A DNA stretch of 24,000 bases from the NCBI GenBank assembly GCA_035528035.1, contig DATKZI010000043.1, positions 27,332-51,331 on the forward strand. The letters are read 5' to 3'. The DNA comes from Candidatus Bathyarchaeia archaeon. Lineage in GTDB: Archaea > Asgardarchaeota > Heimdallarchaeia > JABLTI01. Under the pieces are notes generated by a model, which was not told the origin of the DNA, did not search any database, and saw nothing but the letters and a program-made list of their open reading frames with translations. The translations under genes were made by a program, and so were the position numbers. Numbering within the stretch: the first letter of the stretch is position 1; every line of letters begins with the position of its first letter. Positions 2,919 to 18,481 of the stretch are shown here, in pieces.

Positions 2919-3734
2919 TTATTTTTCTTTTAAATTATCTTTCATCTGGACAAAACTAAAGCAACTTGGAATATGCGAATCATATACTCCATGAGCATTC
3001 AGTGACCAACCATGATGTTTTTCTTCCGAATAATCCTCTGTTGAGAGAGATTGAAATCGGGAGAAATTTATACGTAATTCATCATTGATTTTTGGTTGAT
3101 ATTTTTTACCAAATAGAGATGTAAATCCATTCCAAGGAAAAGCCAATTCTACAGTCCATCCAATATCACGATCTGAGGAATCATTAATTGTTCCTTGTAC
3201 CTGAACAGCTGTTTTTAATCCAGGAAAATCCCAATCCATAAAAGCCCATCTTTTTCCTCTAGGATGTTTCTTATAACGAAGAATATCTTGGAATCCACCT
3301 AAAATATCTACATTTCTCTTGAGAAGATCAAATTCAGAACAATTAAATCTACTTTCTTTTGTATATGCATCTTGCCAGATATAGAATACCTCATAAATTG
3401 TCCCTAAAGCATTAATTTGAAATTCATAATAACATTCATCACCAGCAATAAAGAGTTCAATATCATTTTCGGTATAAATTTGTGAATCCCTATCGTTTAA
3501 ATAAGCTTGAACATTTGGTTCCTCCACCCAAAATGCTACATAGAAATAAGAAGAATCCCATAAAGTAGCAATCTTGGTTTGTAATGAAGCAGATCGTCCA
3601 GAGACAAGTTCAACTAAATTAGCTTTTGGAGCATGAATCCACACTTTCTTCTCGAGATTACCATCAATGATAATTGGAGAATTAATATGAAAACATGAAT
3701 AATGTGCAACTTTATCCTCAGAACAACCGTACAT
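2919..3734 (-). CDS. Carbohydrate-binding family 9-like (CBM9/DOMON-type) domain protein
   Basis: IIIDGNLEKKVW, TKIATLWDSSYFYVAFWVEEPNV, NDIELFIAGDECYYEFQINALGTIYEV match the characteristic CBM9_1-like pattern. No N-terminal signal peptide is evident. A gaggt Shine-Dalgarno-like box lies 8 nt upstream of the ATG. Confidence 0.7.
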   Translation of the reverse strand: MYGCSEDKVAHYSCFHINSPIIIDGNLEKKVWIHAPKANLVELVSGRSASLQTKIATLWDSSYFYVAFWVEEPNVQAYLNDRDSQIYTENDIELFIAGDECYYEFQINALGTIYEVFYIWQDAYTKESRFNCSEFDLLKRNVDILGGFQDILRYKKHPRGKRWAFMDWDFPGLKTAVQVQGTINDSSDRDIGWTVELAFPWNGFTSLFGKKYQPKINDELRINFSRFQSLSTEDYSEEKHHGWSLNAHGVYDSHIPSCFSFVQMKDNLKEK

Positions 3735-6648: not shown

Positions 6649-6798
6649 TGTTATTCAGATTAATGATTATATAACACTAAAAAAATCTTTTGAAAAAATT
6701 AATAGTTATAAAAAAGTACCAAAATGATGATTAGAATCTTTTATTAAGGTGAAAATCAAAAAAAAGATAGAAGAACTACAAAAAAAGGTTGAGTTTGC

Positions 6799-7249: not shown

Positions 7250-8239
7250 TTGAAAGTGCTAGTAGTACGACCTACTTTAGCTGAAATAATCGAAGAACAT
7301 AAAGATTCTTTATCGGAAAGTGTAGAAATCATCACACCTAATGAAGGCTCTGATGAAGAAATAGCACAATTGATCACCGATGTTGATATTATTGTTTGTA
7401 CGCGATTGTCAGCAGACGCAGTAATCAATGCTAAAAAATTGAAACTGATTCAAAAAACTGGTGCTGGAGTAGATGCAATGCCTTTCGAGGTAATTAAAGA
7501 AGAGATATATGTAGCAAATACTGCAGGGGCAAATCCAGTACCTTTAGCAGAAGGAGCAATAGCTCTTCTAATGAGTCTTGCGAAACGAATTGTAAGTAGG
7601 CATAATTTATTCCCTGATAGGGACTCTCAAAAAGGAACAGAAATTAGAGGAAAAAATCTAGGGATTATAGGAATGGGAAGTATTGGAGTGGAAATAGCTA
7701 AACGTATGAGCTCTTTTGAGATGAATATTTTAGCTATAAAGAGACAACCAACTGAAGAATTAAAAGAAAAATTAGGTTTAAAATTCCTTGGGGGACCCGA
7801 GGATCTTGATTATTTATTAACTGAATCAGATTTTATTATATTGACAGTTCCATTAACACCACAAACTCGTGGGTTGATAGGTGAACGAGAATTACAGCTA
7901 ATGAAACCTACTTCTTATATTATCAATGTTGGACGTGCAGCATTAATACAAGAAGAACCCTTCTACAAAGCATTAAAAGAGGAAAGAATAGCTGGAGCTG
8001 GTATTGATGTTTGGTGGACACCTCATTGGTGGGACACCATCTGGAAACCTCATAATGATAAACCAGCTAATTATCCTATATGGGAATTGCCAAATGTGAT
8101 AGCTACTCCTCATAATATTGGATTTACAGAAAAAACGATTCACTCTGATAATGCCATAAAAATAATTATTGAAAACATCAATCGTATTGAGAAAGGTTTG
8201 CCTCCACTAAATACCGTTGATAAAGAATTTCAATATTGA
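7250..8239 (+). CDS. D-isomer-specific 2-hydroxyacid dehydrogenase family, NAD-binding
   Basis: GIIGMGSIGVEIAKR (GxGxxG), NVGRAALI and ATPHNIG blocks are present. The start is TTG, preceded by aaggaagga. Confidence 0.9.
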   Translation: MKVLVVRPTLAEIIEEHKDSLSESVEIITPNEGSDEEIAQLITDVDIIVCTRLSADAVINAKKLKLIQKTGAGVDAMPFEVIKEEIYVANTAGANPVPLAEGAIALLMSLAKRIVSRHNLFPDRDSQKGTEIRGKNLGIIGMGSIGVEIAKRMSSFEMNILAIKRQPTEELKEKLGLKFLGGPEDLDYLLTESDFIILTVPLTPQTRGLIGERELQLMKPTSYIINVGRAALIQEEPFYKALKEERIAGAGIDVWWTPHWWDTIWKPHNDKPANYPIWELPNVIATPHNIGFTEKTIHSDNAIKIIIENINRIEKGLPPLNTVDKEFQY

Positions 8240-10164: not shown

Positions 10165-10350
10165 AATGAGTAATTCTCCTTATAGTTAGGAATAAATGGA
10201 AATTTGCACTTTCTAGGAAAGTGGAACAAAAACAAAATACATTTACTAGTATATTAAAATAATAGTTTGAATCATAAAATGAGTAAACTATAAAGAAAAA
10301 AAGTAACTTTATCATATACAAATAGCTTTTTAATTAAAAATGAAATTTCT

Positions 10351-11451
10351 TTGACTCATTGTATACTAATGGTGACATTTATGGTAGCTGTGAAAGCAAT
10401 ATCCTCTGATGAAGTATTTCAAGAATGGGTTAGTAAAGCTGATATCAATACTTTGAAAAAATTCTATGAAAGAAAGAAAGTAGATTTCAAGCGGGATCAC
10501 GTTTCTGCTGTCGAAACGGTTTACAATGTCTCTAAATTTATAGTGATTTATTTTGAGAAAAAAATTCCTGATACATTTACTGGAAACACTGAAGTAAAAG
10601 TAGAAAAAACAACTGTAGATGAATTAGATAGATACAAATTCTATGATTTTAAAAACAGGAGAGTTGATTTTGATCAGTGGAAGGAAAAATCAATTTCCGT
10701 TCCAACCATAAGCAGTTTGCAATCATCTGATTGTCCAAAATGCTATGGAACAGGTAAAACAAAATGCGAAACCTGTGGAGGCACCGTTACAATCAAATGT
10801 GATAAATGTGATGGCAGTGGAAGAATTGGTTGTAGTAGTTGTAAAGGTAATAGGACCTTAATTACAAGTATTGATGTATATGATGCAGAGAACAAAAAAA
10901 CCAAAACGGAGATTAAAATTCCTTGCCCTCAATGTTCACATACAGGAACCATTACATGTACAAAATGCAATGGAGCGAAAATAATCTATTGTAGAAATTG
11001 TACTGGAGGAGCAAATACTTGCAAGGTATGTAAGGGGTATGGCATAATTTACAATTTCAAATATGAACCTGTGCCTTTTATCACAAGTAAAAAGAGAGCC
11101 ATGGTTTTCTATAAAAAAGATGTCGAGAAATTTATTGACAAGAAAGAAGTTGAGCAACTTCTAAATTCTCGAGAGATAGAAGGAATAGCAATTCAAAATC
11201 CAGATGAATTGACTCAAACAAGATTACTACCTGAACTAAATTACTGGACTGCTGAAGCAGATAAAATATGTAATGAAGCGAGGAAAACTTACAAAGATTT
11301 AATGAAGAGCAAACAAATACAAACAAATCAAAAAATCATGGTTTTTCCTGCATTGCAATTACGCTGTAGAAGTGTAAAAGGAAAGAACTTTGAAGTTTTC
11401 GGAATTGGCACATCTGAAAGTTTTGTAGTTTTAGATGATGGTTTCAAATAG
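10351..11451 (+). CDS. Multi-zinc-finger protein with eight CxxC motifs (DnaJ-CR-like CxxCxGxG repeats) flanked by unassigned domains
   Basis: Block 1 is CPKCYGTGKTKCETCGGTVTIKCDKCDGSGRIGCSSCKGN. Block 2 is CPQCSHTGTITCTKCNGAKIIYCRNCTGGANTCKVCKGYG. The track start is TTG 10351; ATG 10369 and ATG 10381 (the latter preceded by ggtga) are alternatives. Confidence 0.8.
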   Translation: MTHCILMVTFMVAVKAISSDEVFQEWVSKADINTLKKFYERKKVDFKRDHVSAVETVYNVSKFIVIYFEKKIPDTFTGNTEVKVEKTTVDELDRYKFYDFKNRRVDFDQWKEKSISVPTISSLQSSDCPKCYGTGKTKCETCGGTVTIKCDKCDGSGRIGCSSCKGNRTLITSIDVYDAENKKTKTEIKIPCPQCSHTGTITCTKCNGAKIIYCRNCTGGANTCKVCKGYGIIYNFKYEPVPFITSKKRAMVFYKKDVEKFIDKKEVEQLLNSREIEGIAIQNPDELTQTRLLPELNYWTAEADKICNEARKTYKDLMKSKQIQTNQKIMVFPALQLRCRSVKGKNFEVFGIGTSESFVVLDDGFK

Positions 11452-11481
11452 AAATCATATTTTATTTACGATAGGATAATA

Positions 11482-11510
11482 AATTGGCTTTCTTTGAAGC
11501 AAAGCCAATT
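11482..11510. terminator. Perfect 10-bp hairpin between convergent genes
   Basis: aattggcttt (11482-11491) pairs with aaagccaatt (11501-11510) across a 9-nt loop, followed by gttttct. It lies between the stops at 11451 (+) and 11552 (-). Confidence 0.4.
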
Positions 11511-11551
11511 GTTTTCTAATTCAAAATATAAAACTGATGCTTATATAAAAC

Positions 11552-12625
11552 TCAAATATTAGAATCCTCGTCTGTTTTACTTTTGAAGACTTTATCCTTG
11601 AGTTCTTCACTTTTCTTGACTATACTGGAATAAATTTTATCTGTTTTTTCATCGAATGATTTTATCAAAGATTTAGATGTTTGACTTAAATTTTCCTTGA
11701 TACGTGAAGTGGCTTTTTTCTCAGGATTAGGCGTTACAGCTTCTATAAAAGTAATAGGAAGAGTATGGACATCACAAGGATAAGATCTATTTGGATTAGA
11801 AGCATAACCCTCATCCTTTAACCAAGTTTTGGCAGAATTATAAGCTTCATCAATTAAGAATTCTGATTTCGAGAAATCATGTGGTCCTACATTTACACAA
11901 TAAGGCGGTGGAATGATTATTAGCTCAACTTTATCTTTGTATAATTGAATATCAGTTGCTAATTGTCTATTAAGAAGAAAGATGAAACTACGTATGAGAA
12001 TTTCCATAACATTTTTTGGTTCTTGATCTGAAGATGGAACACCAATCGGAAAAACAACTATCCGACCAGCACCTAATCTAACAGCTGTAGAGATTGGCGC
12101 ATTGTTAATTATCCCACCATCAACCAATAATCGATCATTCATATGTAATGGAGGAAACACACCCGGAATTCCTGCGCTTGACATTAAAGCTTCTATTGCT
12201 AACCCTTTGTTAAAAACTACCTCTTCGCCACATTTGATATCAGTGCTAATAATATACAAGGGAATTTTAGTTTCTTCAATGCGTGTAAAAGGAAGATGTT
12301 CAGTAATTAATTTACGTAAATTTTTTGGTGAAACTAAGTGTAAACCAGAAGTTGTGAGATTTACTACAGGTGTAACTGGTGAAGGAGGAAAAACATCCCG
12401 CATTTTGATACTACGCCAAATTCGTTCAATAGCATTTACTCCCTCTAAAGTTGGATTATAGGCATACATTGCACCATTTAAACTTCCAACAGACGTACCT
12501 AAGACCATGTCAGCTTGAATATTGTGCTCTACAATAGCCCTTAGAGCACCAACTTCAACAGCGCCTAAACTAGCACCACCTGAGAAAACAAATGCTGTTT
12601 TTGAATTAAATGTATAACCTTCCAT
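11552..12625 (-). CDS. Patatin-like phospholipase
   Basis: Glycine-rich oxyanion motif FSGGASLG (res 14-21), nucleophile elbow G43-T-S45-V-G47, and catalytic Asp in LVD169GG. The Lys/Ser/Glu-rich C-terminal ~70 aa is unassigned. Confidence 0.9.
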   Translation of the reverse strand: MEGYTFNSKTAFVFSGGASLGAVEVGALRAIVEHNIQADMVLGTSVGSLNGAMYAYNPTLEGVNAIERIWRSIKMRDVFPPSPVTPVVNLTTSGLHLVSPKNLRKLITEHLPFTRIEETKIPLYIISTDIKCGEEVVFNKGLAIEALMSSAGIPGVFPPLHMNDRLLVDGGIINNAPISTAVRLGAGRIVVFPIGVPSSDQEPKNVMEILIRSFIFLLNRQLATDIQLYKDKVELIIIPPPYCVNVGPHDFSKSEFLIDEAYNSAKTWLKDEGYASNPNRSYPCDVHTLPITFIEAVTPNPEKKATSRIKENLSQTSKSLIKSFDEKTDKIYSSIVKKSEELKDKVFKSKTDEDSNI

Positions 12626-12816
12626 AAAGAGATAATATTATTTACTCATTTAATAAGTTCTTTATTTTATAGAAAATGGGCTGTGTAAGCATGATGCTTC
12701 TAAGCAAAAAACTAACAAGATTAGTATCATCATTAATTTGGCAATAAAAATAAGTAAGACAATAGAACAAAAAAATCAATTATAATAAAACGAAATAAAG
12801 ATAATAGAAAAGTAAA

Positions 12817-12847
12817 TGGTGGCCGGGAACGGATTTGAACCGCCGAC
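12817..12847 (-). repeat. Orphan copy of the tRNA-Pro 3' end (att-like direct repeat, distal copy)
   Basis: tggtggccgggaacggatttgaaccgccgac matches 14879-14909 at 30 of 31 positions in the same orientation. The single difference (12828 a vs 14890 g) corresponds to tRNA position 65. Confidence 0.85.
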
Positions 12848-12911
12848 AATTAAACTATAATATAATTGTTCTTTAAAAATAATTGAAAGTTAAAGAGCAT
12901 GTCAACAAATA

Positions 12912-13547
12912 TTATACGATGAGTTTATTTTTGTTTTTACTTATTATTTCTAAAATCTCTTGTACTATTTGAACAACTAATGTTGAAGGGTTGCTAGCTA
13001 GAGATAGTAGTTCAACCCCTAAATCGCTATGTTTCTTATTCAATTTAATAGCATTTTTCATAGCATTATTTCTGTTATTAACGAGAATATCAAAATAATC
13101 CTTCGACTTGGTATAATTCAAAATATTTTTGGTTAACTTTTCAAGTAAATCTTTTGTTGAAATTCTTTGGTCATAATAAATATAATGTAATAAATACCAT
13201 AATTCGAAACAGGGATTTGACAAACATAAATTAATGTTATTTTTTTGAGCTAATTTACTAGCGTCTGAAATATTTTGTAAAGTATTCTTATCAGCATCAA
13301 AAACACACCAGACTTGATCTCCATATTGGAAGTCAATACCATATTTTTGTATTTGACTTAAAGCAAATTTCACCAGATTTTTCGGATCAGTGACATTTGT
13401 TTTTGGCGTTAGAATCTCAAGTCCATTATTTCGAGCTCTATATCTTCCAAAATAGATCCTCTCGGTTTTTTGACCCTCGCAAATCAATAAGATTTTGGTG
13501 ATTTGTTTTCGAAGATTAGCTTTTCTGGAAGAATATCCTTTTGCCAT
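12912..13547 (-). CDS. RloB-like protein (Toprim-type acidic pattern), AbiLii-like
   Basis: N-terminal ILLICEGQKTERIYF, VWCVFD84AD86KN and SNPCFELWYLLH are present. The ATG at 13547-13545 directly abuts the upstream TAA at 13550-13548. Confidence 0.85.
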   Translation of the reverse strand: MAKGYSSRKANLRKQITKILLICEGQKTERIYFGRYRARNNGLEILTPKTNVTDPKNLVKFALSQIQKYGIDFQYGDQVWCVFDADKNTLQNISDASKLAQKNNINLCLSNPCFELWYLLHYIYYDQRISTKDLLEKLTKNILNYTKSKDYFDILVNNRNNAMKNAIKLNKKHSDLGVELLSLASNPSTLVVQIVQEILEIISKNKNKLIV

Positions 13548-14783
13548 TTAACCAAACCCATTTTCTTTTATGAAAGGTAAAGCACCATATCTTCCTGCTA
13601 GATATCCTCGCTCAATATCCTTATCCTTTCTGGGACTAAATTCTATTAAGGAATATAGTTCTGTACTACCTTTTTCTTCATTTTTTTCAGTGAACCATAT
13701 TTGATCTCTTCTGAATATTGTTTGATCTAACAAATTTGTATTATGTGTAGTAAATATCAGTTGGGCATTTGTTTTATTTTGAATTTTATTATGAAAGAGA
13801 TTGATTAGAAATAAATTTAATTTATGATGTAATTTTACCTCTAGTTCATCTATAACAAGAATCCGTCCATTTTCTAATGCGTCTAACCATAGACCAATTA
13901 GCGAAAACAACCTCTTCGTTCCCTCAGATTCCTCTGTAAAGTAATCAAAAACTACTCCTTTATGCGAGGTTTTAATATTGATTTCTTCTAATGACAAAGT
14001 TTTTGCTATATTAATAAAACTTTTAATTTCAGGTGGTAAAGATTCTGGGATTTTCTCTAATAACCTTAAATTTACCTCAATGTCTTCTAATGCTAAATCT
14101 GCTTCTGCTAATGCTTTTAATATTAGTTCTTTGTTCTTGGATTCCTTTTCAATAAAAGCAATGGTTGGTCTCTCAGATCCGATGGGTTGATATGGTCCAA
14201 TAAATTGCAATTGATTCTTAAACCAATCAAAGACAGGAAAAACTTCTTGATAATTCTCTTGTGTAGCTTTTGATAAATAGAGAGTATTCTCAAGTGTTCT
14301 TTCAGCTATGAAGTTTTGAATGGTTTTATCTCTAGTAAATTTAAATTCAGTATTTATTCTCTCAAAGAGTAATGCACGTCTGTTATTTTTATACCAATAC
14401 AGTGATTCTTCTAAAACTTTTATGCCATTAAAAGCAATTGTATAAGCATATTTAATCTCATTTTGAATAAAGATAATTTGAAATCTGGTTGGAATTTGTA
14501 AACAAGCTTTGTCTAATTTAAAGGGCTCATATTTTATACCTTGACCTTTTTGATGGTTATGAGAGTTTAATACAAGGGCTTTTAGAAAGTAAAAAGCCAT
14601 CAGAATATTACTTTTACCTGAAGCATTTGCTCCATAAATTACTGCACTTCGAAGTAGATTGTCAGATTTCAAAACAGAAGTGATTAAATTATCTTCCAAA
14701 GATAAATCCTTAGAAGCAATCATACTAAAAGTGACTTTATCTTTTATTGACCGATAATTTTCAATACTAAATTCAATTAACAA
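13548..14783 (-). CDS. AAA_15/AAA_21-type (ABC/SMC-like) ATPase, AbiLi-like
   Basis: N-terminal MLIEFSIENYRSI, Walker A G51ANASGKS58, Walker B-like ILVIDELEVKLHH, and FTTHN are present. The start is TTG with ggcggtg upstream. Confidence 0.9.
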   Translation of the reverse strand: MLIEFSIENYRSIKDKVTFSMIASKDLSLEDNLITSVLKSDNLLRSAVIYGANASGKSNILMAFYFLKALVLNSHNHQKGQGIKYEPFKLDKACLQIPTRFQIIFIQNEIKYAYTIAFNGIKVLEESLYWYKNNRRALLFERINTEFKFTRDKTIQNFIAERTLENTLYLSKATQENYQEVFPVFDWFKNQLQFIGPYQPIGSERPTIAFIEKESKNKELILKALAEADLALEDIEVNLRLLEKIPESLPPEIKSFINIAKTLSLEEINIKTSHKGVVFDYFTEESEGTKRLFSLIGLWLDALENGRILVIDELEVKLHHKLNLFLINLFHNKIQNKTNAQLIFTTHNTNLLDQTIFRRDQIWFTEKNEEKGSTELYSLIEFSPRKDKDIERGYLAGRYGALPFIKENGFG

Positions 14784-14878
14784 ATTAAAACACCGCCTAA
14801 GGACAAATTTTGTGGTTTTTTCACAAAAATTAAGATTAAAATAGTCACTGATACTATTTAAAGATTATGGAAAGAAAG

Positions 14879-14909
14879 TGGTGGCCGGGGACGGATTTGA
14901 ACCGCCGAC
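14879..14909 (-). repeat. Proximal copy of the 31-nt direct repeat, the functional 3' end of tRNA-Pro
   Basis: It covers the encoded CCA, discriminator A, the 3' acceptor strand, the whole T arm and 3 nt of the variable loop. Confidence 0.85.
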
Positions 14910-14917
14910 CACTTAGT

Positions 14918-14960
14918 AATCTGCTGGTGGGACTCATCCCGCTACTATTAGCTTTCCAGT
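14918..14960 (-). other. tRNA intron with canonical hBHBh' splice motif
   Basis: The central 4-bp helix pairs tRNA 32-35 (UUUG) with intron CAGA and includes one G-U. The two 3-nt bulges are G36-G37-A and U-U-A38. The outer helix is intron CUGG/CCAG. Confidence 0.8.
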
Positions 14961-15074
14961 CCCAAACCAAGTATCATACCGTGCTAGACTACCCGGCCTT
15001 CTCTTGTGCTTTGCTAAGCATTCTTTTTTGAGTTTTTTCTGATTTTTGAATCTTTCGTTAGCTTGCTGATAATC

Positions 15075-15287
15075 TTATTCGTCATCTAAACCTTTATCCA
15101 ACCATGTGCTATTCATATGATGTTTTTGACTGATAGGACATCTTACAAAATATTTAACACGATTTGAATATACTTCGTCACTTTCTATTAATTCTACACA
15201 ATCTATACAATAGTATTTTTCACAATCAAAACACCATTGTAAATTTTTCTCTTTCCCACATTTCGCACATTTTTCTTTTAATGCCAT
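15075..15287 (-). CDS. Small cysteine-rich zinc-binding protein (B-box-like or cross-brace spacing)
   Basis: 70 aa with C7-x2-C10-x8-C19-x2-C22-x4-C27-x2-C30, then C50 and H56/H57. Confidence 0.6.
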   Translation of the reverse strand: MALKEKCAKCGKEKNLQWCFDCEKYYCIDCVELIESDEVYSNRVKYFVRCPISQKHHMNSTWLDKGLDDE

Positions 15288-15491
15288 TATTATCAGATTC
15301 CTTAATTACGATATTTTATTTTAAATACTTTATTAGAATCTAAAAATGCAAGAACTCTCCAAGGTAATTCGCGAATGGAACCTAAATTAAATTATTTTTT
15401 CACCAAAAGTCAATATATTCTAACTTTTCATCTTATAGAAAAACTTTTATTTTTTGAATTTGTTTTTTATTTGATTTAGGGGTTTTATATT

Positions 15492-16799
15492 ATGAATTCG
15501 TCCAGTAAAATATACACGTTAATTTTTATTTTCATTTTTTCATTACAAACTTGTTTTCCAATTTCTGCACAAACTAGCTCATTTTTCCCCATAACTTGGA
15601 ATAGCCCAATACTGTTATCATCTCCTGATATTCCAAGCACTTATCCCAATATTGTAGTAGATACAAACAATAAAACATCAGTGGTTTGGATTGGCAAAAT
15701 TGGTTATAGTGAAAAGGTAAATTATAGATACAGAAATAATTTTAATAGTTGGTCAGCTATTCAAGATATTTCAACTACAGTAGGTGTTTATGCTACCCCA
15801 GAAAAATGTTCGATGATTTTAGACAAATCCAATATAGTACATGTAGCGTGGTTGAATAGTAATTATGATCTTTATTATCGATACTTAAATGGAACTATTT
15901 GGTCTAATTCCCAAATTATCGCGGGATTAAATAACTCTGGTAGTTTTTCATTAGCCTCCTTTTTGGATGGATCAATTGTTTTTGTTTGGAATACCATCTA
16001 TAATACTAGAAACCAATTATTTTCTCGTTGTTTCTATCCTCAATTTAATAATTGGTCAGACATAATCCAAATTACTAAAAGTAAAGGTAATTGTAAATAT
16101 GTTGATATCGCCATTGATTCTACTGATCAAGCTCATTTAGTTTGGGTTGAGGAAATAGCTTCCCCCTATTTTTCAGGGATTAAATATCAAACATTTAACA
16201 AAACATACACATTTACTAATGAAACAAAAATCAGCACTTTAGATGATGAAGAATATGATAATCCATGCATAGCTACTGATAGCTTAAATAATGTACATAT
16301 AGCATGGGAAGAAAAGGTTGGCTATCCTAGCTATGAAAGGGGATTAGTTTACAGATATCAAAATAACGGAAGCTGGAGCTCAAAGAAATATTTCGATCTT
16401 TATGGTAGCGCAACGAATCCGGTTATTATGTGCGATTCCAATGATCTTTTACATCTCCTATGGTCGGAATATAATTCTTTGATTTACAATCAAATAGGAG
16501 AAAATGGCTTGCGTTCTGATTATGATTTTGTTATAACACAATGTGGAGGAACTATACCAGATATGGTTGTAGACGACAACAATATTGTACATATACTCTA
16601 TTCTGCTGATGAATCTGCATCTGAACCAACCTATTATGGAATTAATTATATTGTAGGCATGAGAACTGTTTTGGAGCCCACAACACCTCCAATTAGTATA
16701 TCAATAAACCTTTCATTTCAAACAATCTTCCTCATGATTTTTGGGATAAATTCAGCAATCAGTATAGTTATAATTTATAAAAAGAAAAAGAACTCATGA
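15492..16799 (+). CDS. Secreted, C-terminally membrane-anchored protein with seven internal repeats (probable beta-propeller)
   Basis: Signal peptide (IYTLIFIFIFSLQTCFPISAQ). A motif recurs seven times at ~45-55 aa spacing: TSVVWIG, VHVAWLN, IVFVWNT, AHLVWVE, VHIAWEE, LHLLWSE, VHILYSA. Most copies are preceded by a D-x-x-(N/D) turn and followed by Y-R-Y...W-S. A C-terminal TM segment and a KKKK stop-transfer follow. An agggg box lies upstream of the ATG. Confidence 0.85.
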   Translation: MNSSSKIYTLIFIFIFSLQTCFPISAQTSSFFPITWNSPILLSSPDIPSTYPNIVVDTNNKTSVVWIGKIGYSEKVNYRYRNNFNSWSAIQDISTTVGVYATPEKCSMILDKSNIVHVAWLNSNYDLYYRYLNGTIWSNSQIIAGLNNSGSFSLASFLDGSIVFVWNTIYNTRNQLFSRCFYPQFNNWSDIIQITKSKGNCKYVDIAIDSTDQAHLVWVEEIASPYFSGIKYQTFNKTYTFTNETKISTLDDEEYDNPCIATDSLNNVHIAWEEKVGYPSYERGLVYRYQNNGSWSSKKYFDLYGSATNPVIMCDSNDLLHLLWSEYNSLIYNQIGENGLRSDYDFVITQCGGTIPDMVVDDNNIVHILYSADESASEPTYYGINYIVGMRTVLEPTTPPISISINLSFQTIFLMIFGINSAISIVIIYKKKKNS

Positions 16800-16992
16800 A
16801 TCATATGAAGATGAAGAATCAGGTTACCCAATCGCTATTTTATTATCAACAGATAATACAGAAGAAACTATACAGATCAACATAGATGACTATTCGAATG
16901 TTTTCCTTAGGAATTATAAATTGGAGGAAAAAACCAAAGCTGCAATCGCTTCGTATAAAGCTAAGTATAGAAAATCTCTAAAACAAGATTAG
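16774..16992 (+). other. Start-less 72-codon ORF in the +1 frame, probably the displaced C-terminal tail of the 15492..16799 protein
   Basis: The frame opens immediately after TAA 16771-16773 and overlaps the A5-G-A5-G tract (16779-16790). It has no ATG/GTG, and its only TTG is near the 3' end. It reads FIKRKRTHESYEDEESGYPIAILLSTDNTEETIQINIDDYSNVFLRNYKLEEKTKAAIASYKAKYRKSLKQD and is followed by the hairpin plus T7. Confidence 0.4.
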
Positions 16993-16997
16993 GCTCA

Positions 16998-17028
16998 AAA
17001 GGGAGGTAAATTCTCCTTTTCTTTTTTT
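16998..17028 (+). terminator. Stem-loop plus T7 terminator-like element
   Basis: aaagggag (16998-17005) pairs with ctcctttt (17013-17020): 8 bp with one G-U and a 7-nt loop, followed by c + ttttttt (17022-17028). Confidence 0.5.
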
Positions 17029-17083
17029 ACTAATCTTACTTCATGATACTATTAATTAACTCCTCTAGTGTCACCTAGTGTTA

Positions 17084-18481
17084 TTATTTAGCTTTAGGAT
17101 ACTCTTCTATAGGAATAATAGGTTCAATTGGCAACTCTTCTTCTTGAATTCCACTTTTAATTAATTTTTGTGATTCCCTTAAGTTCTTTTTAACAACTTT
17201 GCTGATTACCAAAGGAAGTAACCCTGCTATAGGATATGCAACCATTGCAATTGGAAATAGCATTGCATCCAGAGCTGTAAAAGCTAAACCGCCAAGCAAA
17301 GTTCCCGTAGCTCTCATAGCTCTTTGTCCTGTTTGCAGAAGACCCAAAGTCTTTCCTCGATGTTTGGGCGGTATCCATTCAAACAAAAAGCTATTCCAAG
17401 CAGCTGAGGGTGTCATAGCAAAGAAATATCTTAGTATAAAGAAGAAACAGGTGAGATAAAACATATCATGGCTGCCTGCAAGCCAAATACCTATTGCTGC
17501 AGGTATCACTGCTGTCCAGAAAATTACTACCACTACATCTTTACCCCATTTTTCAGCGATAAAGGCAATTAGTAGATAACCGGCTGAGAGAGCTAACCAA
17601 TTTAGAGAATTCAACCATGCCCAAGCCATGAAATGGGCTTCAAAAATATAATTAAAATGAGTGTAAACATATGCTCCTACAAAAGGAATTGCCACCCCAC
17701 TAGTAAAACCCATCAACATTCGTCCAATCCCAAAACTTCCTTGCACTAAGAGAATAGATTTCAATCCTTTCTTTTCATCCGCGAATGCAGTAAAATCATC
17801 ACCACTTTTTTCAGAAAGTTCTTGAGCATAATCGATCTCTCCTTTAGGGGATTTTTCAGCAATTAATTTTAATGTGAAAATTAGGATCAATGCTATTACC
17901 CCAAAAATAGCCATGATAGTAAAGACCCAATCATATCCTAGAATGGGGAAGGTCAATAAAAACATACAAATAATAGGGGCGGAAGCACTTGCCAAACCTC
18001 TCGAAACCATATTCCAAGTTAATCCCTTCGTTCTATGCTTCCCTTTACCAGTTTCATTAGCAATAAAAGCATTAGTGGAAATCATCATTAATTGTTGCCC
18101 TATAGCAAACAAGCAGTAAAATAGTATAGATAAACCATAATTATCTACTCGAGTAAAAGCAACAGCTGAAACAATAATGGATAAGAGACCTATAATCATG
18201 CCTGTGCGTTTAAATTGTATATCTACTAGAAATCCCAAAATAAAGATAATGACCATTGAAGCATACCCTCCTATGGAGAGTACTAAACCGTATTTTTCAT
18301 TTGTCCACCCTTTTTCATCAAATGCAAATGGTATAATCAGTGTACTAAATGATTCTTCAAAAATTCGATAGAAAAAACTAACTGTAATGATATTACGCAA
18401 AATCCCTTTATGATTTCTACCGTTGAAATTAGAATCAATTGCTGATGAAGGTTCTGTAGGGGCGTTAGTTTTCATAGTCAC
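17084..18481 (-). CDS. Major facilitator superfamily transporter
   Basis: 465 aa with about 12 hydrophobic helices in two halves separated by a charged central loop. The loop 2-3 motif is GFLVDIQFKRTG (MFS G-x-L-x-D-x-x-G-R-K/R-like). Confidence 0.88.
   Translation of the reverse strand: MTMKTNAPTEPSSAIDSNFNGRNHKGILRNIITVSFFYRIFEESFSTLIIPFAFDEKGWTNEKYGLVLSIGGYASMVIIFILGFLVDIQFKRTGMIIGLLSIIVSAVAFTRVDNYGLSILFYCLFAIGQQLMMISTNAFIANETGKGKHRTKGLTWNMVSRGLASASAPIICMFLLTFPILGYDWVFTIMAIFGVIALILIFTLKLIAEKSPKGEIDYAQELSEKSGDDFTAFADEKKGLKSILLVQGSFGIGRMLMGFTSGVAIPFVGAYVYTHFNYIFEAHFMAWAWLNSLNWLALSAGYLLIAFIAEKWGKDVVVVIFWTAVIPAAIGIWLAGSHDMFYLTCFFFILRYFFAMTPSAAWNSFLFEWIPPKHRGKTLGLLQTGQRAMRATGTLLGGLAFTALDAMLFPIAMVAYPIAGLLPLVISKVVKKNLRESQKLIKSGIQEEELPIEPIIPIEEYPKAK

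Follow-up and report, generated by a model that had tools for sequence, protein, structure and literature searches.

We analysed a 24,000-nucleotide stretch of DNA from an Asgard archaeon of the Heimdallarchaeia (contig DATKZI010000043.1, positions 27,332 to 51,331 of the forward strand; GenBank assembly GCA_035528035.1, named Candidatus Bathyarchaeia archaeon). The whole stretch is referred to as the window. Our subject is a segment of 2,031 base pairs (bp), called the cassette below, that lies directly behind a tRNA-Pro gene, carries an AbiL operon and ends in a second, partial copy of the tRNA 3' end. An initial annotation, made from the sequence alone, had proposed that this arrangement results from site-specific integration. 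Features are listed in Table 1. Coordinates are window positions unless another locus is named; L001, L002, L003 and so on are contigs or loci compared with the window.

The tRNA-Pro locus and its AbiL operon

The two copies of the tRNA 3' end are labelled here as attachment (att) sites: attL beside the tRNA body and attR at the distal end of the cassette. They form a direct repeat, in the same orientation, with 30/31 identical positions and a spacing of 2,062 bp. All of these values, and the repeat coordinates, reproduced those in the initial annotation. No third copy of the 31-mer, with up to three mismatches, was found in the window, and none of 100 shuffles gave a match. The 31-mer covers variable-loop positions 46-48, the T arm, the 3' acceptor strand, the discriminator A and the encoded CCA. 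At attR, the boundary is sharp at tRNA position 46, and similarity upstream of it is at chance level. The sole mismatch between the copies is C65, which is U in the distal copy, opposite G49. Both the position and the pairing partner agree with the initial annotation.

The tRNA gene itself is intact, as the initial annotation had it. The Rfam model RF00005 matches positions 14882-14998, on the minus strand, at 47.3 bits; the match covers model positions 1-71 and has 46 nt inserted in the anticodon loop. Read from the sequence, the anticodon is UGG (Pro) and a 43-nt intron occupies the canonical 37/38 position. The intron has a bulge-helix-bulge of textbook form, with 4-bp helices UUUG/CAGA and CUGG/CCAG; the two splice sites lie in its 3-nt bulges, GGA and UUA. 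Folding of the acceptor and T arms is as expected. Note that ARAGORN, as run on the window, reported no tRNA because of the 43-nt intron.

The duplication does not stop at the CCA. A repeat-finding program extended the pair to 39 nt (12809-12847 and 14871-14909; 92% identity), and a weaker resemblance runs about 25 nt further beyond the CCA (18/26 matches with gaps; score reached by 80 of 5,000 shuffles). The same resemblance past the CCA occurs in a related locus, L026, where 54 of 5,000 shuffles reached the score. Hence, since 12791-12816 resembles 14853-14878, the duplication continues past the CCA in degenerate form. The T-rich flank is probably the native terminator region of the tRNA. 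Overall, the segment has the ends of a tRNA-targeted integrative element, with a tRNA 3' direct repeat at both ends and the tRNA regenerated at one.

We searched for the att sequence elsewhere. An exact 27-mer had no match in 185,579 species genomes, among whose representatives this lineage is absent. A looser 23-mer matched once in the same genomes, in an unrelated Salinibacteraceae tRNA. Seven att matches came from JGI metagenomes. Only two, in L014 and L015, are Asgard-like tRNA-Pro genes; the other five were set aside as bacterial tRNAs, or unrelated fragments, with the same 3' end. Near-absent from these collections, and absent from IMG/VR, the 31-mer is not a generic repeat.

Only two real open reading frames (ORFs), both on the minus strand, are found between the att copies; all other ORFs of at least 25 aa are short overlaps. 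The first encodes AbiLi, with PADLOC matches to AbiLi (2.9e-96) and AriA (8.4e-33), and Pfam matches to AAA_21 (4.4e-35) and AAA_15 (1.4e-11). Its translation contains a Walker A motif (GANASGKS), a Walker B motif (ILVIDE) and an H-loop (TTHN). Gene callers place the AbiLi start at a downstream ATG, giving 391 aa instead of 411. The N-terminus given by the TTG start, MLIEFSIENY, is kept in homologues that have an ATG start. The second gene encodes AbiLii, which matches Pfam RloB over its full length (2.5e-40) and PADLOC AbiLii (2.4e-27), and contains CEGxKTE and FDAD motifs. Searches of the PDB with both protein sequences gave nothing useful. An ABC ATPase gene of the AAA_15/21 type that abuts an RloB-family gene is the arrangement of an AbiL system. 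AbiL has been grouped with PARIS and OLD as defence systems that pair an ABC ATPase with a TOPRIM protein (PMC11464382, PMC13064643). AbiLi is presumed to be the sensor and AbiLii the nuclease effector. Judged by its genes, the operon would defend against viruses.

The non-coding ends of the cassette are a 95-nt leader and a 64-nt tail. Within the leader, a palindrome sits 42 nt upstream of the AbiLi start. A TATA box and the motif TTTGTGA-N5-TCACAAA are kept upstream of AbiLi in six loci from different archaea. In these loci, which include the window, L009, L020, L010, L021 and L022, the elements lie 40-55 nt upstream of the AbiLi start. The palindrome is likely an operator or a hairpin in the 5' untranslated region. 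Given its leader with a TATA-like box and palindrome, the cassette is a self-contained transcription unit.

There was no recombinase among the Pfam or PADLOC matches inside the cassette, and it has no other ORF longer than 70 aa. The only ORFs reading into either att copy are spurious (54 aa or shorter). Moreover, because the non-coding ends measure only 95 and 64 nt, an integrase, an excisionase and split-integrase fragments of the SSV type are all excluded. The ORF list, Pfam and PADLOC thus agree with the description in the initial annotation of a two-gene content lacking integrase, transposase or split-integrase fragments.

Table 1. Features of the window, and of related tRNA-Pro loci. Positions in the lower five rows are those of the named locus.
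Feature	Position	Strand	Description
Patatin-like phospholipase gene	11552-12625	-	Host flank, outside the cassette; Pfam Patatin 6.2e-28
T-rich flank beyond attR	12791-12816	-	Resembles 14853-14878, the 26 cassette nt nearest the tRNA
attR	12817-12847	-	Displaced partial tRNA 3' end; 30/31, U65; no tRNA body upstream
Inserted cassette	12848-14878	-	2,031 bp between the repeat copies; AbiL operon and its own promoter region
abiLii	12912-13547	-	211-aa RloB-family (TOPRIM-like) protein; ATG directly after the abiLi TAA stop
abiLi	13548-14783	-	411-aa ABC-type ATPase; TTG start; PADLOC and Pfam
Promoter region of the cassette	14808-14862	-	TATA-like TTTAAATA box at about 14855-14862; palindrome TTTTGTG-N7-CACAAAA at 14808-14828
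attL	14879-14909	-	Working 3' end of tRNA-Pro, tRNA positions 46-76
tRNA-Pro(UGG), encoded CCA	14879-14998	-	Rfam tRNA model; exon 1 14961-14998, intron 14918-14960, exon 2 and CCA 14879-14917
L004	2762-4148		Intron-less tRNA-Pro(UGG), then 1.28 kb with a DegV paralogue, then a 38-nt tRNA 3' copy
L008	228-957		tRNA-Pro, then 0.62 kb with a CBS-domain gene, then a tRNA 3' copy
L026/L027	3327-5281 (L026)		tRNA-Pro, DegV, copy (29/31), CBS, copy (26/31)
L025			Intron-containing tRNA-Pro without a duplicate
L015			94.8% identical tRNA, then two unrelated genes with no Pfam or PHROG match

Related lineages carry the same unit, other cassettes or none

The same AbiL unit, with the same ends, is found in a sister lineage, represented by L009 (a metagenome-assembled genome, MAG, labelled Heimdallarchaeota) and L003. 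Nucleotide identity to the window is 91.9% over 2,102 nt for the unit, compared to 81-85% for the flanks. Synonymous divergence (dS, by the Nei-Gojobori method, NG86) is 0.25 for AbiLi and 0.18 for AbiLii, while nine flanking genes have values of 0.64-1.01. The 95-nt leader differs between the lineages at about 16% of positions, in line with the dS of the cassette. Homology to L009 starts within the tRNA 3' segment (at 14901) and stops about 16-20 nt past attR. Beyond this tract, the left flank of L009 is unrelated and its right-hand neighbours are reordered. By the yardstick of dS, the common ancestor of the AbiL unit is an estimated 3-4 times younger than the split between the chromosomes. 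A dS below that of its flanks and a different context in the sister lineage are evidence that the unit has a horizontal origin. The insertion at a tRNA 3' end, bracketed by att copies, that the initial annotation proposed is therefore supported: the cassette is less diverged than its surroundings, the less diverged tract ends at the att copies and, as described below, the cargo of relatives varies. Since both lineages have the same minimal unit with the same ends, it travelled either without an integrase or as a precisely att-delimited module of a composite element.

In L009, the cassette sits between two partial tRNA copies; the one on its left side is a decayed 46-nt tRNA fragment with no tRNA body. 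We considered, and rejected, the idea that this copy is a whole decayed tRNA, since only about 46 nt are similar and 18 of 200 shuffles reached the score of the sequence upstream. Both att copies in L009 are more decayed (25-26/31) than those of the window (30/31). This suggests that the window lineage acquired the unit more recently. Separately, L014 has a tRNA-Pro(GGG)-like gene with an intron (at about 880-988) that has the same 3' end except GGTCACCA. The GGTCACCA variant also occurs in the tRNA-proximal partial copy of L009 (378-408). This is a hint that the targets may include more than one tRNA-Pro isoacceptor.

Scanning the contigs of relatives for degenerate tRNA 3' copies revealed other cassettes behind the same tRNA (Table 1). 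These carry a DegV paralogue or a CBS-domain gene and, like the AbiL type, are co-oriented with the anchor tRNA. With only 33-39% identity to the resident DegV, the one in the cassettes is a paralogue. Its dS between L026 and L004 is 0.13, compared to 0.63-1.24 for host genes. In L004, L008 and L026, the T loop of the distal copies has a G in place of the A of their tRNAs; a common attP variant would fit. Repeat length varies between events, at 31, about 38 and about 46 nt. While the window has a single cassette, L026 and L027 have two, separated by att copies, which is tandem accretion. Decay in L026 is greatest in the copy that lies furthest from the tRNA, an order that fits serial integration with the newest arrivals beside the tRNA. 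Conversely, L025 has no duplicate. Relatives thus have different, multiple or no cassettes at this site.

The flanks belong to the host. The patatin gene has a dS of 0.67 to L009, which is host level, and its homologues are labelled Heimdallarchaeota, Asgard group, Lokiarchaeum or Promethearchaeum; the identical protein in one NCBI MAG has the label Bathyarchaeia. The G+C content of 30% and the intron in the tRNA also point to an Asgard-type archaeon. As for the patatin gene: it is a conserved, clade-wide neighbour of tRNA-Pro; the two are 2.3-9.7 kb apart in the window, L025, L026, L004 and L008. This linkage is kept in every lineage, so the neighbourhood is a conserved one into which the cassettes were inserted. 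A 435-aa protein encoded 5' of the tRNA had no homologue except itself. Compared to L009 (2503-4950), the patatin and Zn-finger-protein segments of the window (10307-12668) are swapped without inversion. These segments directly adjoin the distal att copy, and no repeat was found at their borders.

Two further assemblies overlap the window. L002 is identical across an overlap of 13.5 kb, and L001, a strain variant, is 99.8% identical. All 39 differences from L001 fall within 15069-17908 (2.8 kb), and 16 of these are in 15069-15105, the C-terminus of a 70-aa Zn-ribbon ORF (15075-15287, minus strand). On either side, window and L001 are the same: for 13.5 kb leftward, tRNA and cassette included, and for 4.7 kb rightward. 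The interval 15069-17908 looks like a strain-level recombination tract that starts 70 nt 5' of the tRNA. This start explains why the L002 contig breaks where it does, at 15068.

AbiL operons are also cargo in other settings. AbiLi homologues with 54-69% identity occur in Woesearchaeota, Methanosarcinales, Altiarchaeales and others. In other archaea, homologues adjoin type I restriction-modification, CBASS and Shedu genes, in defence islands. A further set is found on 190 bacterial plasmids, with less than 45% identity to the proteins of the window. In L010 and L011, a tyrosine integrase comes directly after a tRNA, and an AbiL pair is situated about 1 kb from the integrase. L010 yielded no second copy of the tRNA 3' end. 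Hence, this is an integrase-bearing AbiL locus without defined boundaries. L010 (6722-7788) also has a 26-nt duplication of the 5' end of an intron-containing tRNA (6722-6747 and 7694-7719). This duplication brackets a gene encoding LAGLIDADG and helix-turn-helix (HTH) domains, the 3' end of which overlaps the tRNA 5' end; a tyrosine integrase directly follows the tRNA. L020 has an AbiLi-AbiLii pair and a 176-aa gene with an HNH motif; its AbiLi is 69% identical to that of the window. Together, the three genes are bracketed by a 41-nt direct repeat (40/41 identical; 308-348 and 2992-3032) that is not derived from a tRNA and is just upstream of hsdM. By this arrangement, L020 is a second integrase-less, repeat-flanked AbiL insertion.

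How the cassette may have reached the tRNA gene

The best reading of these observations is serial, site-specific integration at tRNA-Pro, giving a small array of integrase-less, att-flanked cassettes. Such units resemble the cis-mobilizable elements (CIMEs) of bacteria. Their movement would depend on an integrase encoded elsewhere; alternatively, they would be precise leftovers of composite elements. For the window, we put at roughly 50% the probability that the AbiL operon was inserted site-specifically at the tRNA-Pro 3' end as a recombinase-less, cis-mobilizable-like unit, moved by an integrase encoded elsewhere. The steps would be as follows. A small circular DNA would carry the att sequence and the AbiL operon. 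The att sequence of this putative circle would recombine, site-specifically, with the 3' end of the tRNA-Pro(UGG) gene. This would regenerate the tRNA, creating attL, and the displaced 3' end would stay behind as attR. A tRNA-Pro-specific integrase, from a helper element or a composite neighbour, could excise or integrate any segment between two att copies. Repeated use of the site would then build a short array, with the newest cassette beside the tRNA and the oldest att copies most decayed.

Several results weigh against this scenario. In five lineages, no integrase turned up within about 10 kb of tRNA-Pro. Scans of IMG/VR gave no match to either att variant, and so no att-bearing element, and no AbiLi relative. 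Circular junctions were absent from the assembled sequences examined. No empty site turned up in the same species; all seven contigs with an identical patatin gene have the same neighbours, cassette included. The initial annotation had predicted an empty site in which tRNA-Pro is followed directly by patatin, and this was not found. The nearest case is L025, where the unduplicated tRNA-Pro is 4.3 kb from patatin. Likewise, in no relative does tRNA-Pro directly abut the distal flank of the window, L015 having other genes downstream. In L009, a second element might have pushed the cassette inwards, but the tRNA-proximal copy is a decayed fragment that lacks a tRNA body, and the contig ends 385 nt further on. 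The low-dS tract shared by L026 and L004 also covers a 193-aa gene past the last att copy (dS 0.21), so att copies do not bound all of the island exchange. At its tRNA-proximal end, the DegV cassette retains the remnant of a truncated ORF, as expected of a decayed larger element. Finally, the cassette could not be separated from its flanks by G+C content, G+C at third codon positions (GC3), tetranucleotides or codon usage, a comparison the initial annotation had put forward as a check. Its tetranucleotide correlation to the window is 0.969, compared to a median of 0.964, and GC3 is 0.20-0.24. Since composition and codon usage match the host, either the insertion is old or any donor was closely related.

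The main rival is that a larger, integrase-bearing element at tRNA-Pro lost everything but its AbiL cargo. The att copies would then be inert scars and the unit immobile. We regard this as possible but rather unlikely. The AbiL pair beside a tyrosine integrase in L010 and L011, the truncated ORF beside the tRNA in the DegV cassette and the lack of a helper integrase near the site in five lineages all favour such trimming, and decay into integrase-less, att-flanked units is documented (PMC5704250; 10.1101/2020.12.28.424599). This view is weakened by the occurrence of the same 2.03-kb unit, with identical ends, in lineages whose chromosomes show 3-4 times its synonymous divergence. Trimming must either have preceded transfer or have occurred twice at the same base pairs. 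Furthermore, the AbiL cassette has no pseudogene debris, only its promoter leader and short tail, and three different cargoes share the same minimal format. The initial annotation had left the choice between a trimmed remnant and a minimal unit moved in trans undecided. The shared unit tips the balance towards movement in trans, although a module of a composite element is also possible.

A second rival dispenses with an integrase. Host homologous recombination, acting on the 31-57 bp of the tRNA 3' end and terminator, would insert a circularised cassette at tRNA-Pro by a Campbell-type single crossover and remove it by repeat-mediated deletion. Transfer between related cells would rely on whatever form of DNA exchange these archaea possess. 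The lack of a recombinase near the site in five lineages is as expected here. So too are a duplication that runs past the tRNA end in degenerate form, a repeat length that differs from event to event, the L026/L004 low-divergence tract that passes an att copy, suggesting island exchange, and strain-level recombination tracts adjoining the tRNA. Conversely, the proximal repeat boundaries are sharp, and at sublocations typical of integrases that target tRNAs. With such integrases, identity typically begins in the anticodon stem or variable loop and extends to the 3' end. In addition, the same tRNA is targeted every time, and not just any shared sequence. We know of no evidence for efficient recombination on about 30 bp of identity in Asgard archaea, which counts against this explanation. 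On balance, we consider it improbable.

It is very improbable that the distal tRNA fragment has a function of its own, as a terminator or processing signal of the upstream gene or as a tRNA-derived decoy or guide for the AbiL nuclease, or that it is left over from a local tRNA duplication. Such a role is brought to mind by PARIS, a related ATPase and TOPRIM system that cleaves host tRNA (PMC11464382), and by the T-rich run, potentially a terminator of transcription, that follows the fragment at the end of every cassette. However, the same fragment follows the unrelated DegV and CBS genes, and so is not specific to AbiL. It also decays towards A+T with distance from the tRNA (29/31 then 26/31 in L026; 25-26/31 in L009), so it is not under selection. 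No complementary 5' acceptor strand, with which it could form a minihelix, lies nearby, and tandem duplication does not fit because the intervening genes differ between copies. A tRNA-fragment decoy linked to AbiL was rejected on the same grounds of DegV and CBS neighbours and decay. Split tRNA halves were also rejected, since the fragments begin at positions 40-46 instead of 38 and lack a leader.

A chimeric assembly join at the 31-nt repeat can be dismissed: although L002 starts 70 nt upstream of the tRNA, and the contigs of L009 and L003 run out a short way upstream of the cassette, identical junctions recur in independent assemblies from different samples and pipelines (L001 and L002 for the window; L003 and L009 for the sister lineage), L002 breaks where the strain-variable tract begins, at 15069, and not at the repeat, and 31 nt is far below the assembler k of 141 that the contig names imply.

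We therefore favour integration of mobile, integrase-less cassettes at tRNA-Pro. A bolder version makes tRNA-Pro a dedicated capture platform in this Asgard clade, functionally akin to an integron. Promoter-bearing circles of one gene or one operon, with a tRNA 3' copy as their sole recombination site, would be captured by a chromosomal or helper recombinase, which would also stack, shuffle and remove them behind the tRNA. Defence genes (the AbiL operon) and accessory metabolic genes (the DegV paralogue and the CBS protein) would then circulate between lineages as minimal cassettes. We consider this version unlikely.

Significance and comparison with known systems

Asgard archaea are the closest prokaryotic relatives of eukaryotes. 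Gene flow among them is poorly understood, and few large elements have been described. Here, a complete defence system has moved between lineages as a 2-kb unit with only a tRNA-derived recombination site. If a trans-acting recombinase were confirmed, this would be an archaeal counterpart of CIMEs or of integron-style cassette capture. If the att copies were inert scars instead, the locus would be an ordinary decayed island. Confirmation of such a recombinase would also yield a simple way to find mobile cargo in archaeal MAGs, by searching the DNA behind tRNA genes for partial tRNA 3' ends. Such cargo escapes island finders that rely on integrases. Note too that tRNA-anchored island searches in Asgard MAGs, with an equivalent ARAGORN run, would miss intron-bearing sites of this kind.

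The closest parallels are CIMEs. These elements, and their tandem accretion at tRNA and other att sites, are known from the streptococcal ICE (integrative and conjugative element) and IME (integrative and mobilizable element) families (Pavlovic 2004, Bellanger 2011, as reviewed in PMC5704250). As defined there, a CIME keeps attL and attR but lacks integration and transfer genes, which is what we find. The cassettes behind tRNA-Pro share with CIMEs the position at a tRNA 3' end, the absence of their own integration genes and tandem arrays split by att copies. In both cases, mobilisation is proposed to need the integrase of another element that uses the same site. CIMEs, however, are bacterial, usually represent a decayed ICE or IME several kb in length, and are carried along by conjugation. 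In the present case, an Asgard archaeon is the host, units are 0.6-2 kb long with one gene or one operon, and no helper was seen within our searches. The tycheposon islands of Prochlorococcus also contain partial tRNAs, and their older elements are pushed inwards (Hackl et al., 10.1101/2020.12.28.424599). They resemble the present loci in having a specific tRNA anchor, partial tRNA copies between insertions and integrase-less leftover cargo that includes defence genes. Unlike here, where the cassettes are much smaller and no intact, integrase-bearing parent is known, tycheposons have tyrosine or serine recombinases and replication modules, and many intact copies. In the initial annotation, the lack of an integrase was singled out as unusual. 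The lack itself stands, but it is less unusual than implied, as CIMEs and tRNA-island remnants are known in bacteria.

Archaeal elements that integrate at tRNA genes offer a second comparison. In Heimdallarchaeum, aloposons, CRISPR-Cas modules and the virus HeimV1 integrate at tRNAs (PMC8813620), and arrays of integrated elements that reuse one site are known in archaea (PMC6563490). An archaeal (Asgard) host, a tRNA target and defence modules as mobile cargo are common to these elements and the cassettes. Unlike the cassette described here, such elements are tens of kb long and carry integrases or giant genes. For Thaumarchaeota, the smallest cryptic integrated element reported is 2.6 kb, and it has an integrase by definition. 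Insertion of the SSV type would leave int(N) and int(C) fragments abutting the att copies; instead, we find the AbiLi leader and the 64-nt tail. With integron cassettes, the present units share promoter-proximal stacking, single-gene units that end in a recombination site, the lack of a recombinase and, as proposed here, movement in trans. There is no IntI, attI or folded attC, however, and the site is a copy of a tRNA 3' end. Also unlike integron cassettes, every unit brings a promoter of its own, and no array seen comprises more than two units.

The cargo has known relatives too. Like AbiL/RloAB, PARIS and OLD-family systems, the operon has an ABC ATPase gene of the AAA_15/21 type followed by a gene for an RloB (TOPRIM-like) protein, and its products match the AbiLi and AbiLii HMMs strongly. 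Cleavage of tRNA has been demonstrated only for PARIS. We conclude that this kind of element is known from bacteria, and that small, clean and recurrent cassettes of this kind in Asgard archaea are new.

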